Both the position numbers and the translations under genes were made by a program. This document shows positions 24,953-37,613 of a stretch of DNA of 64,000 nucleotides, piece by piece. The stretch's first letter is position 1. The number at the start of each line of letters is the position of its first letter. The notes under the pieces were generated by a model. That model had not been told where the DNA came from. It ran no database searches and saw only the letters and a program-made list of their open reading frames with translations. Origin of the DNA: Escherichia phage PE37; the sequence record NC_054929.1. One strand, given 5' to 3'.

Positions 24953-25405
24953 ATGGCATATTCTGGAAAATGGGTTCCTAAAAATATATCAAAGTATAGA
25001 GGTGACCCTAAAAAAATTACGTATAGATCAAATTGGGAAAAATTCTTTTTTGAATGGTTAGATAAAAATCCAGAAATTATTGCATGGGGTAGTGAAACAG
25101 CAGTAATTCCTTATTTTTGTAATGCAGAAGGGAAAAAACGTAGATACTTCATGGATATTTGGATGAAAGATTCTTCTGGACAAGAATTTTTTATTGAAAT
25201 AAAACCTAAAAAAGAAACACAACCACCAGTTAAACCAGCACATCTAACAACCGCAGCGAAGAAAAGATTTATGAATGAAATTTATACCTGGTCTGTGAAC
25301 ACTGATAAATGGAAAGCAGCACAATCTTTAGCTGAAAAGCGTGGAATAAAATTTAGAATTCTAACAGAAGATGGATTACGAGCTCTTGGCTTTAAGGGGG
25401 CATAA
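24953..25405 (+). CDS. 4: head completion protein gp4
   Basis: 150 aa; RBS GGAGA; late promoter TATAAATA 27 nt upstream. Confidence 0.9.
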
Positions 25406-26229
25406 TGGCTATTTTTCAAATAATTAATGAAAGCACTCCCCAAGTTCCAAAGGTTAAGCAATCATTAAACGAAAAGAAATGGATTCAAATAGGTCTTGAA
25501 TATAAAAAGGCCAAAGCAAAAGGAATGACAGGAAAGCAATTTGCTGAAGAAAGAGGAATTAAATATTCTACGTTTACTTCGGCAATGTCAAAATATGCTT
25601 CAGGAATTAAAACGGCTGAAAAGATTCAAAAGCTTGAATCAAAACCAATGAATAAACTCAATAAGCAAGAAAGACAACTGCTTATGATAAATTCATTCAG
25701 GCAAACATTGCGTGATAAAATTCGTAATGAAGGTGCAGCAATTAATAATAAAACCAGAAAGTGGTTTGCTGAAACTATTAAGCAGGTAAAAGGACATAAA
25801 GTTGTTCGCCCGCAGCCGGGACGAATATATGCTTTTGCTTACGATGCTAAACACAAGGAAACTCTTCCTTACTGGGATAAATTTCCTTTGATAATTTACC
25901 TTGGTTTAGGTAAGCATAATTTAATGTACGGATTAAACTTGCACTATATTCCACCTAAAGCTCGTCAGCAATTTCTAGAAGAGCTTTTAAAGCAATATGC
26001 AAATACACCTACTATTACTAATAAAACGAAATTAAAAATTGATTGGAGTCAAGTGAAAGGATTTAGGGGTGCAGACCAAATGATTAAGGCATATATACCT
26101 GGTAATATTATGGGTAGCCTTGTTGAAATCGCCCCGAAAGACTGGGCGAACGTTGTGTTAATGCCACTTCAGCAGTTCGTTTCAAAAGGAAAACGTTTCT
26201 CTGCAAACAAAGTCTGGTCAAATATCTAA
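25405..26229 (+). CDS. 2: DNA end protector protein gp2
   Basis: 274 aa, synteny. Confidence 0.9.
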
Positions 26230-26335
26230 TTCTATTATCTTCCATTCTTTTCTATTGTTTGTTCTAATTGGAATTGAATGGAAGGGACTTAGACCCATTA
26301 TACCACCAACATTTATGAAGCATTATGAGGAATAT

Positions 26336-26866
26336 ATGTCGCAAGCACTACAACAAATTTTTAACCAAGCAAATACAACTAACTTTGTAGTATCAATACC
26401 GCATAGTAATACTACATCTGCTTTTACTTTAAATGCTCAGTCAGTTCCTATTCCGGGAATTAGGATACCTGTTACTGATACCGTGACTGGGCCGTTTGGA
26501 CTAGGCCGAGCACAACGTCCAGGTGTTACATTTGAGTATGATCCACTCATTGTGAGATTTATAGTTGATGAAGAACTTAAGTCGTGGATAGGAATGTATG
26601 AATGGATGCTAGGAACTAGCAACTATCTTACAGGTGAAAATACTGCCCAAAAAACAGGTCCTGAGTACATTACGCTTTACATCTTAGATAATAGCAAAAC
26701 TGAAATCGTGATGTCAATAAATTTTTATAAGCCTTGGGTTTCTGACCTATCTGAAGTAGAATTTAGCTATACGGAAGATTCAGACCCGGCTTTAGTATGT
26801 ACTGCAACGATTCCTTACACCTATTTTCAAGTAGAAAAAGATGGAAAAATTATAGCAGAAGTTTAA
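26336..26866 (+). CDS. 3: tail completion / tube terminator gp3
   Basis: Start at internal ATG (MSQALQQIF, 176 aa) with GAGG RBS. Confidence 0.85.
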   Translation: MSQALQQIFNQANTTNFVVSIPHSNTTSAFTLNAQSVPIPGIRIPVTDTVTGPFGLGRAQRPGVTFEYDPLIVRFIVDEELKSWIGMYEWMLGTSNYLTGENTAQKTGPEYITLYILDNSKTEIVMSINFYKPWVSDLSEVEFSYTEDSDPALVCTATIPYTYFQVEKDGKIIAEV

Positions 26867-26890
26867 TGCTTCAGTTTTGTGTGTTATAAT
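26867..26890 (+). promoter_or_regulatory. middle promoter (MotA box + -10) for gene 1
   Basis: aaTGCTTCA, then 11 nt, then TATAAT with upstream TG. Confidence 0.55.
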
Positions 26891-26915
26891 CTTAATTAAA
26901 TTTGAGGAGAAACAC

Positions 26916-27640
26916 ATGAAACTAATCTTTTTAAGCGGTGTAAAGCGTAGTGGAAAAGATACTACTGCTGATTTTATCATGAGCAATTATTCTGCAGTTA
27001 AATACCAACTTGCTGGTCCTATTAAGGATGCATTGGCTTATGCATGGGGAGTATTTGCAGCAAACACTGACTATCCTTGCTTAACTCGTAAAGAGTTTGA
27101 AGGAATTGACTATGATCGTGAGACTAATTTAAATCTGACTAAATTAGAAGTAATCACGATTATGGAACAAGCATTTTGCTATCTTAATGGTAAAAGCCCA
27201 ATTAAGGGTGTGTTTGTTTTTGATGACGAAGGACAAGAATCAGTTAATTCCGTAGCATTTAACAAGATTATTGACGTTATAAATAATATTGAAGATCAAT
27301 GGTCAGTCCGTCGTCTGATGCAAGCCCTAGGTACGGATTTGATTGTTAATAACTTCGACCGCATGTACTGGGTAAAATTATTTGCTTTAGATTATCTTGA
27401 TAAATTTAACTCAGGTTATGATTATTATATCGTTCCTGATACTCGTCAAGATCATGAAATGGATGCGGCTAGGGCGATGGGTGCTACAGTAATTCATGTA
27501 GTTCGTCCTGGTCAAAAATCCAATGATACACATATTACAGAAGCTGGATTGCCAATTCGTGATGGCGATTTAGTAATTACAAACGATGGTTCTCTTGAAG
27601 AACTTTTTTCTAAAATTAAAAATACACTAAAGGTACTATA

Positions 27641-27641
<1 letters not shown>
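26916..27641 (+). CDS. 1: deoxynucleoside monophosphate kinase gp1
   Basis: MKLIFLSGVKRSGKDT P-loop, 241 aa; MotA-box middle promoter upstream. Confidence 0.9.
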
Positions 27642-28338
<697 letters not shown>

Positions 28339-28350
28339 TTTCATAAAGTT

Positions 28351-28381
28351 GTTTACATACTGATGAGGTAGTGATACTATT
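28351..28381 (+). promoter_or_regulatory. early promoter upstream of ipI
   Basis: ttcataaagttGTTTAC ... gtgaTACTAT; 10-bp inverted repeat TGATGAGGTA/TACCTCATCA spans the -10. Confidence 0.6.
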
Positions 28382-28410
28382 ACCTCATCAAAATTAATTA
28401 GGAAAATAAA

Positions 28411-28695
28411 ATGAAAACTTATCAAGAATTCACTTCAACGACTAACGCTTCTACTTTGACTGAAGCGACCCTTACTTCTGAAGTTATTAAAGCAAACAAA
28501 GGACGTGAAGGTAAACCGATGATTAGCCTGGTTGATGGCGAAGAAATCAAAGGTACTGTTTACCTAGGTGATGGGTGGTCTGCTAAAAAGGATGGTGCTA
28601 CAATCGTTATCTCTCCTGCTGAAGAAACTGCTTTGTTTAAAGCCAAGCATATTTCAGTAGCTCAGCTTAAAATTATTGCTAAAAATCTTTTGTAA
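28411..28695 (+). CDS. ipI: internal protein I-like, capsid-targeted
   Basis: N-terminal MKTYQEFTSTT capsid targeting sequence; position after 57B; early promoter upstream. Confidence 0.7.
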   Translation: MKTYQEFTSTTNASTLTEATLTSEVIKANKGREGKPMISLVDGEEIKGTVYLGDGWSAKKDGATIVISPAEETALFKAKHISVAQLKIIAKNLL

Positions 28696-28713
28696 TAAAT
28701 TTTTCACAAAGTT

Positions 28714-28744
28714 GTTTACATAGGGTTTTAGTTGTGATACTATT
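28714..28744 (+). promoter_or_regulatory. early promoter in repeated block
   Basis: tttttcacaaagttGTTTACa ... gtgaTACTATtaccctatcaactactgagg. Confidence 0.6.
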
Positions 28745-28771
28745 ACCCTATCAACTACTGAGGAGAATAAA

Positions 28772-28957
28772 ATGAAACGCTGTGAATTAATTCGAAATGT
28801 TGCTATTGCAATTTCTGCTTCCGCTTTTAGTTTTTCAATGTTTGTTGGATTTATATGCGGATTATTGACTACAGCAGAAAATGTTTTTTCACTTGTAGTA
28901 GCATTTTTAATTAGTTTAATTGCTATCGTTATGGATAAAATTTCTAAAGGTGAATAG
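28772..28957 (+). CDS. small membrane protein (2 TM)
   Basis: 61 aa, hydrophobic; GGAG RBS; early promoter upstream. Confidence 0.5.
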   Translation: MKRCELIRNVAIAISASAFSFSMFVGFICGLLTTAENVFSLVVAFLISLIAIVMDKISKGE

Positions 28958-28958
28958 A

Positions 28959-29339
28959 ATGTATAAAGTGTACGCGGATTATCAGGCTAATCCATCTGAA
29001 AAGCCAGATTGCCAAATTGGATGGGCTCATGATACCCTGCTTGAAGCAGTAGATGCTGCTCAAAAATTAGGATATAAATATGTAGAGATTGTTCAACCGA
29101 CAGGAAAAGTTATTACTCTTGAAGAGTTCAATAATATTAAACCGAACTTTTTACTTTTTGCAGGTGATAATTATTATCCTCGCGGTGGATATGCTGATTT
29201 AATCGCGAAAGCCGCTACCGAAGATGAACTCCGTGACATTATCAAAGAAAATGAGAACAAACCAATGTATGGTTCTAATCGCTTTGATTGGTGGCAAATC
29301 GTAAATGCCCACACTCATACTATTGTTGATGAAGGCTGA
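28959..29339 (+). CDS. hypothetical protein
   Basis: ATG after AGGTGA RBS (MYKVYADYQ...). Confidence 0.55.
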   Translation: MYKVYADYQANPSEKPDCQIGWAHDTLLEAVDAAQKLGYKYVEIVQPTGKVITLEEFNNIKPNFLLFAGDNYYPRGGYADLIAKAATEDELRDIIKENENKPMYGSNRFDWWQIVNAHTHTIVDEG

Positions 29340-29341
29340 TA

Positions 29342-29629
29342 ATGATTCTTTATGCGAAAGTATCGTCCATTGAAAATGGATATAAATATGATCAAGACGC
29401 GGCTAAAGCCTTGATTGATGATTATGGCGTTTTAACATGTTTTGAAGTTGAAAAGGTTTACATTGACCGTTCATCTTCTCAAGTTAAATTAGTAAAGGAA
29501 GACCGTAAATTTAATACAGTAAATTTTGATTTCTTTATTGAAACGGAAAAAGGTCCTCTTGAATATGATATTTTCAAGAATCCTTTGGGTCTTGAATGCA
29601 TCGTAAATATGTATTATCATAAATGGTAA
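29342..29629 (+). CDS. hypothetical protein
   Basis: 95 aa ORF, ATGA overlap with upstream. Confidence 0.55.
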   Translation: MILYAKVSSIENGYKYDQDAAKALIDDYGVLTCFEVEKVYIDRSSSQVKLVKEDRKFNTVNFDFFIETEKGPLEYDIFKNPLGLECIVNMYYHKW

Positions 29630-29726
29630 ATATGCTTTAAGAATTATTTGTTATTATTAACTCATATCGCATTGATTAATACCCTCTATCATCAAGGGTT
29701 CTTTCCTGAGAGCCTTTGTTAATAAT

Positions 29727-29799
29727 TGGGAATTAGCCAAGTTGGTAAGGCACTGGATTTTGATTCCAGGATGCAAAGGTTCGAGTCCTTTATTCCCAG
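29727..29799 (+). tRNA. tRNA-Gln (anticodon UUG)
   Basis: Cloverleaf folded by eye: acceptor TGGGAAT/ATTCCCA, anticodon loop TTTTGAT, T-arm GGTTCGAGTCC; CCA not encoded. Confidence 0.8.
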
Positions 29800-29800
29800 C

Positions 29801-29887
29801 GCGAGAATGGTCAAATTGGTAAAGGCACAGCACTTAAAATGCTGCGGAATGATTTCCTTGTGGGTTCGAGTCCCACTTCTCGCACCA
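29801..29887 (+). tRNA. tRNA-Leu (anticodon UAA), type II
   Basis: Acceptor GCGAGAA/TTCTCGC, loop CTTAAAA, long variable arm, CCA encoded. Confidence 0.85.
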
Positions 29888-29892
29888 AATTT

Positions 29893-29966
<74 letters not shown>

Positions 29967-29976
29967 ATTTAATTTA

Positions 29977-30050
29977 CTCCGTGTAGCTCAGTTTGGTAGA
30001 GCGCCTGATTTGGGATCAGGAGGTCCAAGGTTCAAATCCTTGTATGGAGA
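29977..30050 (+). tRNA. tRNA-Pro (anticodon UGG)
   Basis: Anticodon arm CCTGA-TTTGGGA-TCAGG, T-arm CAAGGTTCAAATCCTTG; acceptor has G-U pairs; CCA not encoded. Confidence 0.8.
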
Positions 30051-30052
30051 CT

Positions 30053-30142
30053 GGAGGCGTGGCAGAGTGGTTTAATGCACCGGTCTTGAAAACCGGCAGT
30101 CGCTCCGGCGACTCATAGGTTCAAATCCTATCGCCTCCGCCA
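30053..30142 (+). tRNA. tRNA-Ser (anticodon UGA), type II
   Basis: Acceptor GGAGGCG/CGCCTCC, loop CTTGAAA, long variable arm, CCA encoded. Confidence 0.85.
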
Positions 30143-30147
30143 GTTTT

Positions 30148-30223
30148 GCTGATTTAGCTCAGTAGGTAGAGCAACTCACTTGTAATGAGAAGGTCGGCGG
30201 TTCGATTCCGTCAATCAGCACCA
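30148..30223 (+). tRNA. tRNA-Thr (anticodon UGU)
   Basis: Acceptor GCTGATT/AATCAGC, loop CTTGTAA, CCA encoded. Confidence 0.85.
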
Positions 30224-30224
30224 A

Positions 30225-30299
30225 GGCCCTGTAGCTGGAAGGTTCAAGCAAGCGACTCATAATCGCCAGATGGTGGTTCAATTCCACCCAGGGCCACCA
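30225..30299 (+). tRNA. tRNA with CAU anticodon (Ile2 lysidine-type, or Met)
   Basis: Acceptor GGCCCTG/CAGGGCC, loop CTCATAA, CCA encoded; T4 tRNA-Ile counterpart by position. Confidence 0.8.
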
Positions 30300-30308
30300 A
30301 ATTAATTT

Positions 30309-30395
30309 GGGGAGTTATCCCGTAGAGGTAGCGGTGTGGACTGTAAATCCATTGTCATTGCGACTCGGGTGGTTCGACTCCATCACTCCCCACCA
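30309..30395 (+). tRNA. tRNA-Tyr-like (anticodon GUA), type II
   Basis: Acceptor GGGGAGT/ACTCCCC, anticodon arm GTGGA-CTGTAAA-TCCAT, variable arm with GTC/GAC stem, T-arm GGTGGTTCGACTCCATC, CCA encoded; D-arm imperfect. Confidence 0.6.
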
Positions 30396-30399
30396 ATTT

Positions 30400-30474
30400 G
30401 GATGTGTAGCTCAATGGCAGAGCGATCGCCTGTTAAGCGATTGGTTATAGGTTCGAATCCTATCACGTCCGCCA
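30400..30474 (+). tRNA. tRNA-Asn (anticodon GUU)
   Basis: Acceptor GGATGTG/CACGTCC, anticodon arm ATCGC-CTGTTAA-GCGAT, T-arm ATAGGTTCGAATCCTAT, CCA encoded. Confidence 0.8.
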
Positions 30475-30478
30475 AATC

Positions 30479-30554
30479 CGAGGCATAGCTCAGAAGGAAG
30501 AGCAAGGACCTTCTAAGTCCTAGGTCGTAGGTTCGATCCCTACTGCCTCGACCA
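30479..30554 (+). tRNA. tRNA-Arg (anticodon UCU)
   Basis: Acceptor CGAGGCA/TGCCTCG, D-stem GCTC/GAGC, anticodon arm AGGAC-CTTCTAA-GTCCT, CCA encoded. Confidence 0.85.
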
Positions 30555-30570
30555 ATTAAGTGAGGAAAAT

Positions 30571-30921
30571 ATGAAAGGTAATGTTTATTTAGTAGTTCAT
30601 GATTTAACATTTTATTTTAATCACAATGACACGGTTATTTCTGAACGTGTAATTAATTTGCTTTATCAACACGCGGATTATGTTTATGTCGAAAACGAAT
30701 ATGGTCATTGGCAATTTCTCAAAAATCGTTCATTTGGCTTAGATGGTTACGAATACTTTGAACGTAAAGACCTTTTAGATAAAATTTCGTTATCTACACA
30801 ATATCAAAATCATAAGTCTTTACATAAATGTCGGCTAATTCGAAATGCTGAATCTGCTTATGAAGCAATTGATTTATGGCGTTTACGCCGTGAACAAATT
30901 GATGCTTTAAAAGAATATTAA
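30571..30921 (+). CDS. hypothetical protein
   Basis: 116 aa ORF starting 17 nt after tRNA-Arg, RBS GAGGA. Confidence 0.55.
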   Translation: MKGNVYLVVHDLTFYFNHNDTVISERVINLLYQHADYVYVENEYGHWQFLKNRSFGLDGYEYFERKDLLDKISLSTQYQNHKSLHKCRLIRNAESAYEAIDLWRLRREQIDALKEY

Positions 30922-31099
30922 GAAACCGGGTCGCTACCGGTAAGTCGTCGGACTGATGTTCCCTGTTTAAGGACTGGCATTAATAAATCTTTATGTTTTG
31001 TTAATGTCCTCTTATATCACAGCAGAAACGGCGCACCGAATTATCGATTCGAGGAAATATCTTTGCCGTAAGCCGAGTAGCGTTTTTGACGGAACGTTC

Positions 31100-31235
31100 G
31101 GATATGGTCGAGATATGGCCTTTTAAAAATATTGAGTAGCGTCAACTGCTTAATAACCGGGTTCGAATCCCGGCGTTTCGTACAAACACTTGCCTTAGCA
31201 GGTGGAACCCCGACAAGGTTGCCGCAAGGCTTAGA
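31100..31235 (+). ncRNA. putative small stable RNA (T4 species 1/2 rnaC/rnaD-like), boundaries approximate
   Basis: 390-nt ORF-free interval after the tRNA cluster with a tRNA-like T-arm (CCGGGTTCGAATCCCGG), repeated GAGTAGCGT, ending at a terminator; T4 has stable RNAs near tRNA-Arg. Confidence 0.3.
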
Positions 31236-31262
31236 CCCGACCGAAAGGTTGGGGCTTTTTGG
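31236..31262 (+). terminator. rho-independent terminator (copy 1)
   Basis: Hairpin CCCGACC-GAAA-GGTTGGG followed by CTTTTT. Confidence 0.7.
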
Positions 31263-31270
31263 TATAAATA
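31263..31270 (+). promoter_or_regulatory. late promoter TATAAATA
   Basis: Exact TATAAATA about 40 nt upstream of the 31311 ATG. Confidence 0.6.
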
Positions 31271-31310
31271 TAGTAGTATATTAAATCCACGAATTAAAAC
31301 AGGAAATAAG

Positions 31311-31784
31311 ATGAAATCATATACTCAATTTTTAAATGAAGCGGTGTTAAATGAAGCATCTAGCACCGAAATTCAAGCTGTCGCAAAAGCAGCCATTGCA
31401 GCGGGTAAATATTCTTACAAAGATGCTTCTGATGAATCGCGATTCCAGTTTGCACGCGACATGAAAGCGGAAGGATTTACGGGAAATGCAGTTAGTATGG
31501 CCTGGAAAAGTTTAGTTGCTACTGGCGCTGCTTTTGCAAAGGCTTCGGGTAAACCTGCTCCTAAAGCAGATCCTAAAGTCGCACAAGAGAAAAATATTGT
31601 TAAAGGAATTATCTCCAAATATGAAGCTATCCTTAAAGAGCTTTTAGTAATCAAAACTGAAGGCCAAAAACTAGCTCGTGCTTATAGTTTCAAAGATAAC
31701 CCACATGCTCACTCTCTTGAGTATGTTGAAGACATCCAAAAAATTATTAAAGACCGCATTTGGTCTGCTAAACAAATCAAATAA
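31311..31784 (+). CDS. capsid-targeted internal-protein candidate
   Basis: 157 aa; N-terminus MKSYTQFLNEA resembles the internal-protein capsid targeting sequence; late promoter upstream. Confidence 0.65.
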   Translation: MKSYTQFLNEAVLNEASSTEIQAVAKAAIAAGKYSYKDASDESRFQFARDMKAEGFTGNAVSMAWKSLVATGAAFAKASGKPAPKADPKVAQEKNIVKGIISKYEAILKELLVIKTEGQKLARAYSFKDNPHAHSLEYVEDIQKIIKDRIWSAKQIK

Positions 31785-35449: not shown

Positions 35450-35980
<531 letters not shown>

Positions 35981-36039: not shown

Positions 36040-36456
36040 ATGACTCGTATTAATTTGACTTTAGTATCTGAACTTGCTGATCAACATTTAATCGCAGAAT
36101 ACCGTGAATTGCCACGTGTTTTTGGTATAGTTCGTAAACATGTGGCAAATGGTAAACGGGTTAAAGATTTTAAAATATCTTCCGAGTTTATTTTAGGTTC
36201 TGGTCATGTTACGTTCTTTTACGATAAGTTAGAATTTTTGCGAAAGCGTCAATCAGACATTATAACGGAATGCTTAAAACGCGGGTTTAGTATAAAAGAT
36301 ACTGAAGTTCCTGACATCGGCGATATTCCAGCAGAATGGAAAAATGATTATAATCCATGCAAATCAGCTATTAAATTGAGTCAACAACGACTCAATGAAA
36401 AAATTTTAATGAAGCCACACTGGTACAAGTATTACGGCAAAAATATTTACATTTAA
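36040..36456 (+). CDS. denV: endonuclease V (pyrimidine dimer glycosylase) DenV
   Basis: 138 aa, [17 protein letters not shown]..., close to T4 DenV from memory. Confidence 0.95.
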
Positions 36457-36465
36457 AGGAAACAC

Positions 36466-36939
36466 ATGAAAACATATCAAGAATTTATTACTGAAGCAGC
36501 TATTAATTCTCAAATTATTGCTGAATCTTTTACTGATCTTTTGAAATTTAAAAAAGGTCAAAAAATCACTGCTGTATTGGATGATGGTACAGAAGTTGAG
36601 ATGGATGTACAGGGATATAATTATGCAGTAGATGGAAAACTGTATAATAAATCTCATGCTAAATTTGATTCATTTGACGACTTTGTTAATACAGTTGAAG
36701 ATGAAAAAACTCGTCGATCCATTGCAACTGGTGATGCTAAGGTTCTTATGGCACATGGTCATGAACGCATTCGCGCTAAACAGAATAAAATGGGCGAAGA
36801 TAATTTCGCATTAGTTGGTTATCAATCTGGTAAACAAACTTATGGTTATCAGCGTACTGCTACCATGTATAATAAAAATGGTAAAATTGCCTTTGTGAAT
36901 AGTAAGGGTTCTATTCAGTACGTTAAATCGTTCAAATAA
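36466..36939 (+). CDS. internal protein (ipII/ipIII-position), capsid-targeted
   Basis: 157 aa, N-terminal MKTYQEFITEA capsid targeting sequence, basic C-terminal region. Confidence 0.7.
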   Translation: MKTYQEFITEAAINSQIIAESFTDLLKFKKGQKITAVLDDGTEVEMDVQGYNYAVDGKLYNKSHAKFDSFDDFVNTVEDEKTRRSIATGDAKVLMAHGHERIRAKQNKMGEDNFALVGYQSGKQTYGYQRTATMYNKNGKIAFVNSKGSIQYVKSFK

Positions 36940-37073: not shown

Positions 37074-37613
37074 ATGAGAACATTTTTAACTGGTCCTTAT
37101 CTATCCCTGATGAATGCTTTTACACACCATTCTGATGCTAGAGTAGAAGAAATTTGTAAAAACGAATATATCCCGCCATTTGAAGACTTACTTAAGCAGT
37201 ATTGCACACTTCGTATAGATGGTGGACGTCAATCCGGTAAATCAACTGCTGTGACTAACTTTGCTGCTAATTGGCTGTATGATGGTGGAACAGTTATTGT
37301 TCTTTCTAATACTTCAGCTTACGCTAAAATTTCTGCAAATAACATTAAAAAAGAATTTTCTCGTTATTCTGGCGATGATATTCGATTCCGCTTATTTACC
37401 GATTCTGTCCGTAGTTTTATCGGTAATAAAGGAAGCAAGTTCAGAGGTTTATCGCTTTCACGAATTTTGTATATAATTGATGAGCCTGTTAAAGCTCCTG
37501 ATATGGATAAAATTTACGATATTCATATTGAAACTGTACATTACTGTTGCAATAGTAAATGCTGCATTGGTGGTATTACTCGTCCACAGTTTTTCATAAT
37601 CGGAATGCAATGA
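37074..37613 (+). CDS. small P-loop NTPase
   Basis: Walker A GGRQSGKST, Walker B-like ILYIIDEP, 179 aa. Confidence 0.6.
   Translation: MRTFLTGPYLSLMNAFTHHSDARVEEICKNEYIPPFEDLLKQYCTLRIDGGRQSGKSTAVTNFAANWLYDGGTVIVLSNTSAYAKISANNIKKEFSRYSGDDIRFRLFTDSVRSFIGNKGSKFRGLSLSRILYIIDEPVKAPDMDKIYDIHIETVHYCCNSKCCIGGITRPQFFIIGMQ

Follow-up and report, generated by a model that had tools for sequence, protein, structure and literature searches.

Results

The ipI gene and its neighborhood

Within the 64,000-nt stretch of DNA analyzed here (the window), gene 1 (dNMP kinase), 57A and 57B/Acb1 are followed by a 94-aa open reading frame (ORF), by trna.4, trna.3 and trna.2, and by a cluster of tRNA genes (Table 1). 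The original prediction had placed ipI after 57B, and this position was borne out, as the order of genes is that of T4T; the same order was found in all six compared contigs that contain the exact ipI protein. The ipI start codon is 72 nt downstream of the 57B stop codon. Coordinates, strand and sequence of the ORF were all confirmed, and its product begins with MKTYQEFTSTTNASTLTEATLTSE, the N-terminus that had been quoted. Two minus-strand ORFs, 28330-28425 (31 aa) and 28422-28550 (42 aa), overlap the conserved ipI frame.

Table 1. Positions of ipI, its signals and other features of the window.
Feature	Position	Strand	Evidence
57A (Pfam GP57)	27641-27883		Pfam
57B homologue	27880-28338	+	Pfam Acb1 PF23474, E=2.7e-60
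ipI upstream control region (putative function)	28339-28410	+	promoter scan, inverted repeat, RNA fold
Early-promoter-like site: GTTTACA, spacer, TACTAT with TG	28352-28380	+	promoter scan
Perfect 10-bp hairpin spanning the -10 element	28361-28390	+	inverted-repeat search
Shine-Dalgarno (SD)-like AGGAAA before ipI	28400-28405	+	sequence read
ipI ORF, ATG start, 94 aa	28411-28695	+	ORF list and direct sequence read
Propeptide/capsid targeting sequence (CTS), residues 1-18 (MKTYQEFTSTTNASTLTE)	28411-28464	+	motif scan and alignment with T4 propeptides
Mature IPI* domain, 76 aa, putative GmrSD-inhibitor domain	28465-28692	+	2JUB alignment, PF11634
Codons V83-A84-Q85 (GTA GCT CAG), the sole two differences from T4 IPI* (A-A-H)	28657-28665	+	alignments
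Tandem stops TAA TAA after ipI	28693-28698	+	sequence read
Second promoter/hairpin/SD/ATGAAA copy, heading the trna.4 homologue (28772-28957)	28702-28777	+	direct repeats, promoter scan, fold
tRNA cluster, ten genes (Gln, Leu, Gly, Pro, Ser, Thr, Met, Tyr, Asn, Arg), without segB	29727-30554	+	
Ip4, second capsid-targeted internal protein gene, 157 aa, start MKTYQEFITE/A	36466-36939	+	PHROG 3155

The match of 57B to the anti-CBASS protein Acb1 means that two anti-defence genes, 57B and ipI, stand side by side. The homologous 57B gene is called 'RNA ligase' in several RefSeq phage records. The tRNA cluster differs from that of T4T, which has eight tRNAs (with Ile, but no Met, Tyr or Asn) and is interrupted by the segB homing endonuclease gene, and from that of CAM-21, which has eleven, including His. 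An Rfam scan of 27500-31500 returned only the ten tRNAs, with no match at the ipI locus.

The second gene for a capsid-targeted internal protein in the window is Ip4, which follows denV (36040-36456); e (35486-35980) is in turn followed directly by denV. Its 157-aa product is identical to T2 IpIV/Ip4 and is found on 459 contigs. In T4, ipIII and ipII lie between e and denV, whereas both are absent there in the window. Thus, within the window, Ip1 is accompanied by Ip4 and not by Ip2/Ip3. Just after Ip4 is a 179-aa ORF (37074-37613, plus strand), roughly at the position of T4 vs.8, for which a Pfam search gave no match at E<=1e-5.

The ORF encodes a member of the IPI family

Pfam IPI_T4 (PF11634) matched the ipI product with E=5.2e-52 and 174.2 bits, against a cut-off of 25, and residues 19-94 covered profile positions 1-76 of 76. 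PHROG 4363, 'internal virion protein', also matched (E=1.3e-48). Because of these Pfam and PHROG matches, ipI is not a chance ORF. The sole PDB match was chain A of 2JUB ('Internal protein I'), which is the 76-residue mature T4 IPI* (E=5e-43). Homologues were found in 289 records of the annotated phage collection, the best of them (phiD1, UFV05, BECP11 and ECO4) being 98.9% identical. When IMG/VR viral contigs were scanned for relatives, 13 pattern matches arose, none of which was confirmed. Judged by its sequence, 28411-28695 is an ordinary ipI orthologue of a T4-like phage (Tequatrovirus).

The allele is already known and already deposited. The exact 94-residue protein is on record for Escherichia phage PE37 (ANH49724.1/YP_010073226.1), with the name 'Internal head protein' in UniRef, and 17 public contigs, metagenome assemblies among them, encode it, each time with the same neighbors. 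On six public contigs (L007-L012) the gene is identical at 285/285 nt, and the flanks are about 97% identical to window positions 25400-31400. Complete identity of ipI amid flanks at about 97% would reflect either a recent spread of the gene by recombination or an unusually constrained gene. The ipI DNA itself is a patchwork, with a phiD1/CAM-21-like 5′ third, a T4-like middle and an SG1/phiD1-like 3′ part, the kind of mosaic to which recombination among T-even phages gives rise.

Propeptide and cleavage site

The original prediction had also recognized a capsid targeting start. This was upheld, as MKTYQEF, residues 1-7 of the ipI product, are the first seven residues of T4 IPII and IPIII; the same seven residues begin the product of the Ip4 gene of the window. 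The ipI propeptide was aligned both with that of T4 IPI and with the T4 IPII/IPIII CTS, MKTYQEFIAE. According to a review of work on T4, the targeting determinants are mainly at residues 4 and 7 of the CTS, and the propeptides of internal proteins have lengths of 10-19 residues (PMC9026906). The ipI product carries Y4 and F7 at these positions.

A motif scan identified a single L/I/V-x-E motif in the ipI product, LTE18, which is followed by A19 and is a site of the gp21 type. LTE18/A19 aligned with ITE19/A20 of T4. Mature T4 IPI consists of residues 20-95 (PMC12409352), which correspond to residues 19-94 of the window protein. The propeptide of the window is 18 aa long, whereas that of T4 IPI is 19 aa, and there are 5 substitutions between them, with MKTYQEF in the window and MKTFKEF in T4; the T4T protein starts MKTFKEFTSTTTPVSTITE/A and the window protein MKTYQEFTSTTN-ASTLTE/A. 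The CTS start together with the lone LTE/A at the T4 position indicates that signals for capsid targeting and processing are present, and their use, by analogy with T4, is probable.

The mature domain is nearly identical to T4 IPI*

Alignment to T4 IPI, the check that had been proposed for the locus, gave a clear result. The mature part of the ipI product (residues 19-94) was identical to 2JUB chain A at 74 of 76 positions over its full length (97%). The two substitutions, A65V and H67Q in mature numbering, fall at precursor positions 83 and 85 of the window ORF. The calculated masses of mature IPI* are 8064 Da for the window and 8045 Da for T4, and the pI is 9.02 in both cases. The mature part contained 14 synonymous and 2 non-synonymous codon differences from T4, a ratio indicative of purifying selection.

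An AlphaFold2 model of the ipI product, built from a 14-sequence alignment, had a mean pLDDT of 45, which was too low for use. Because of this, the identity of the fold rests on the 97% identity to 2JUB, from which we infer that the protein adopts the compact alpha/beta fold of IPI*.

V83 and Q85 are the common residues in natural alleles

Natural alleles covering positions 83 and 85 were sampled; V was present in 14 of 16 and Q in 15 of 16, these being counts within a sample for which 15 of 82 cluster members were listed. T4 was the sole A/H allele among them. Thus, among the sampled alleles, V/Q is the majority natural state and the A/H combination of T4 appears as the outlier. When 17 close alleles were compared, 10 of 76 mature positions and 10 of 18 propeptide positions were variable.

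RB69 IPI* differed from T4 IPI* by I46V, A83V, H85Q and N92T (precursor numbering of the window ORF; T4 numbers are one higher). These four changes agree with the 'four residues different' given in PMC6024577, and two of them are the substitutions of the window. RB69 IPI was reported to prevent restriction by GmrSD of CT596 (PMC6024577).

Promoter-like repeats flank ipI

The gap between 57B and ipI contains an early-promoter-like site, a hairpin and an SD-like sequence, which together may form a control region for ipI. The RNA of this region was predicted to fold with -17.4 kcal/mol (z=-6.2), and the region is almost identical in T4T, phiD1, CAM-21 and SG1. For the second copy, the fold was -13.7 kcal/mol (z=-2.6), and T4T, CAM-21 and SG1 have nearly the same sequence for this copy, whereas phiD1 does not. 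The promoter/hairpin pattern occurs twice in the window versus 0.02 expected. Since the second copy heads the next gene, ipI is bracketed by direct repeats of about 75 nt (28339-28416 and 28702-28777). The hairpin stems of the two copies occupy the same place but differ in sequence, TGATGAGGTA/TACCTCATCA in one versus ATAGGGT/ACCCTAT in the other, which is a compensatory pattern. Such repeats could serve for the exchange of cassettes at the locus, which is variable.

The T4 late-promoter motif TATAAATA was not found in the 72-nt gap before ipI, and its nearest match was at 27278. Plus-strand matches to the motif, at 27278, 29073 and 29381, fall within gene 1 and within the homologues of trna.3 and trna.2. 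Because the canonical late promoter is missing directly upstream, late expression of ipI is assumed from T4. To be packaged, IPI must be made late; its late synthesis would then have to depend on a late transcript arriving from upstream or on another signal.

Discussion

Proposed function of the ipI product

We propose, with a probability of about 0.93, that this is a T4-like ipI gene whose product is packaged, cleaved by gp21, ejected and active as an inhibitor of GmrSD-type enzymes. This reading draws on the sequence identity, motifs and synteny observed here, and on T4 and RB69 for packaging, cleavage, ejection and inhibition. The 94-aa precursor would enter the prohead scaffolding core by way of its N-terminal CTS, and the prohead protease gp21 would then cut after LTE18, removing the 18-residue propeptide. 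The basic 76-aa IPI* would stay in the head, in about 360 copies, until it is ejected with the DNA. These numbers and this route are those of T4 IPI* (PMC9026906, PMC4437046). Once in the cell, IPI* would bind and inhibit GmrSD-type Type IV restriction enzymes that cut sugar-modified (glucosyl-) hmC DNA. The expected targets are CT596 GmrSD, Eco94GmrSD and, more weakly, BrxU. Inhibition of the GmrS/GmrD enzyme by T4 IPI, which the original prediction had cited, is documented for the CT596 type (PMC4437046, PMC12373910, PMC12409352). Inhibition by Ip1 is confined to its cognate GmrSD, other variants being blocked by Ip2 and Ip3 (PMC12373910), while BrxU was inhibited in vitro by purified IPI* at 30-fold excess (PMC12409352). 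The window starts in the late region at gene 20; gene 21 and the genes for hmC and glucosylation lie outside it.

The internal proteins were long regarded as basic proteins associated with DNA (PMC9026906), and the mature product is basic, with a pI of 9.0. Conceivably, then, the ipI product serves only as an abundant protein that fills the head or associates with the DNA and has no role against restriction, or the allele is non-functional. We consider this highly improbable, given that purifying selection acts on the intact frame, that the protein is 97% identical to one with demonstrated inhibitor function (PMC4437046), and that the allele is 100% identical in DNA on contigs with divergent flanks, which share about 97% identity.

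Specificity of the allele

The original prediction had raised the possibility of an alternative allele with a different specificity. That idea fails because the mature region is nearly identical to T4 IPI*, at 74 of 76 residues, the outcome that the prediction itself had named as refuting it. We therefore rejected an allele of new specificity as the leading reading on the basis of this identity, the V/Q majority among natural alleles and the protective RB69 IPI (PMC6024577). A narrower form of the idea is that A65V and H67Q shift the inhibitor spectrum to a different set of GmrSD variants, one of which might be the UTI89 enzyme. Each Ip protein acts strictly on its cognate GmrSD (PMC12373910), and the UTI89 enzyme, although closely related, escapes inhibition by T4 IPI* (PMC4437046). 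The effect of the four residues that distinguish RB69 from T4, two of which are shared by the window, on sensitivity of the UTI89 enzyme was left open in PMC6024577. AlphaFold predictions of the IPI*:GmrSD complex, for which no structure exists, were poor (PMC12409352). Even so, a shifted spectrum is very unlikely. There are just two substitutions, each conservative in size or character, and the 14:2 ratio of synonymous to non-synonymous differences gives no sign of diversifying selection. As V/Q is the majority state and T4 the outlier, there is nothing special in this phage, and RB69 IPI retains its protection against CT596 GmrSD despite carrying both substitutions (PMC6024577). Thus an ordinary inhibitor of the T4 type is the reading that we favor.

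The broader proposition that the V65/Q67 form of IPI* differs measurably from the A65/H67 form of T4 in its spectrum of GmrSD inhibition is likewise improbable, by a barely smaller degree. If it were true, the unusual allele would be that of T4, and the surface of IPI* that contacts the enzyme would be marked by two residues of its C-terminal part. Since natural IPI* alleles almost all have V65/Q67, the T4 laboratory allele used for all of the biochemistry is a rare variant. The residue pair 65/67 could be included when the IPI*:GmrSD interface is mapped.

Comparison with known internal proteins

The main value of the finding is a correct annotation. This phage carries a classical injected anti-GmrSD inhibitor, as proposed above, beside the anti-CBASS gene Acb1, and it has Ip1 and Ip4 instead of the Ip2/Ip3 of T4. 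The deposited PE37 protein agrees with the window at all 94 residues, leaving no difference at the protein level. T4 IPI (PDB 2JUB, PF11634) shares the genomic position, a CTS propeptide, an L/I-T-E/A site and a 76-aa mature domain. Yersinia phage phiD1 and Escherichia phages CAM-21, UFV05, BECP11 and ECO4 likewise have a protein of 94 aa whose propeptide and V83/Q85 are those of the window, but carry V46 where the window has I46. RB69 (Mosigvirus) also has V83/Q85 in the mature part, and differs from the window by I46V, N92T and ISPVANVS in the middle of the propeptide; its DNA carries arabinosyl-hmC. T4 IPII and IPIII and the T2-type Ip4 have in common with ipI the N-terminal CTS MKTYQEF and the logic of packaging, cleavage and injection, whereas their mature domains show no similarity to IPI* and their cleavage occurs after residue 10 (IAE/A or ITE/A) rather than after residue 18.
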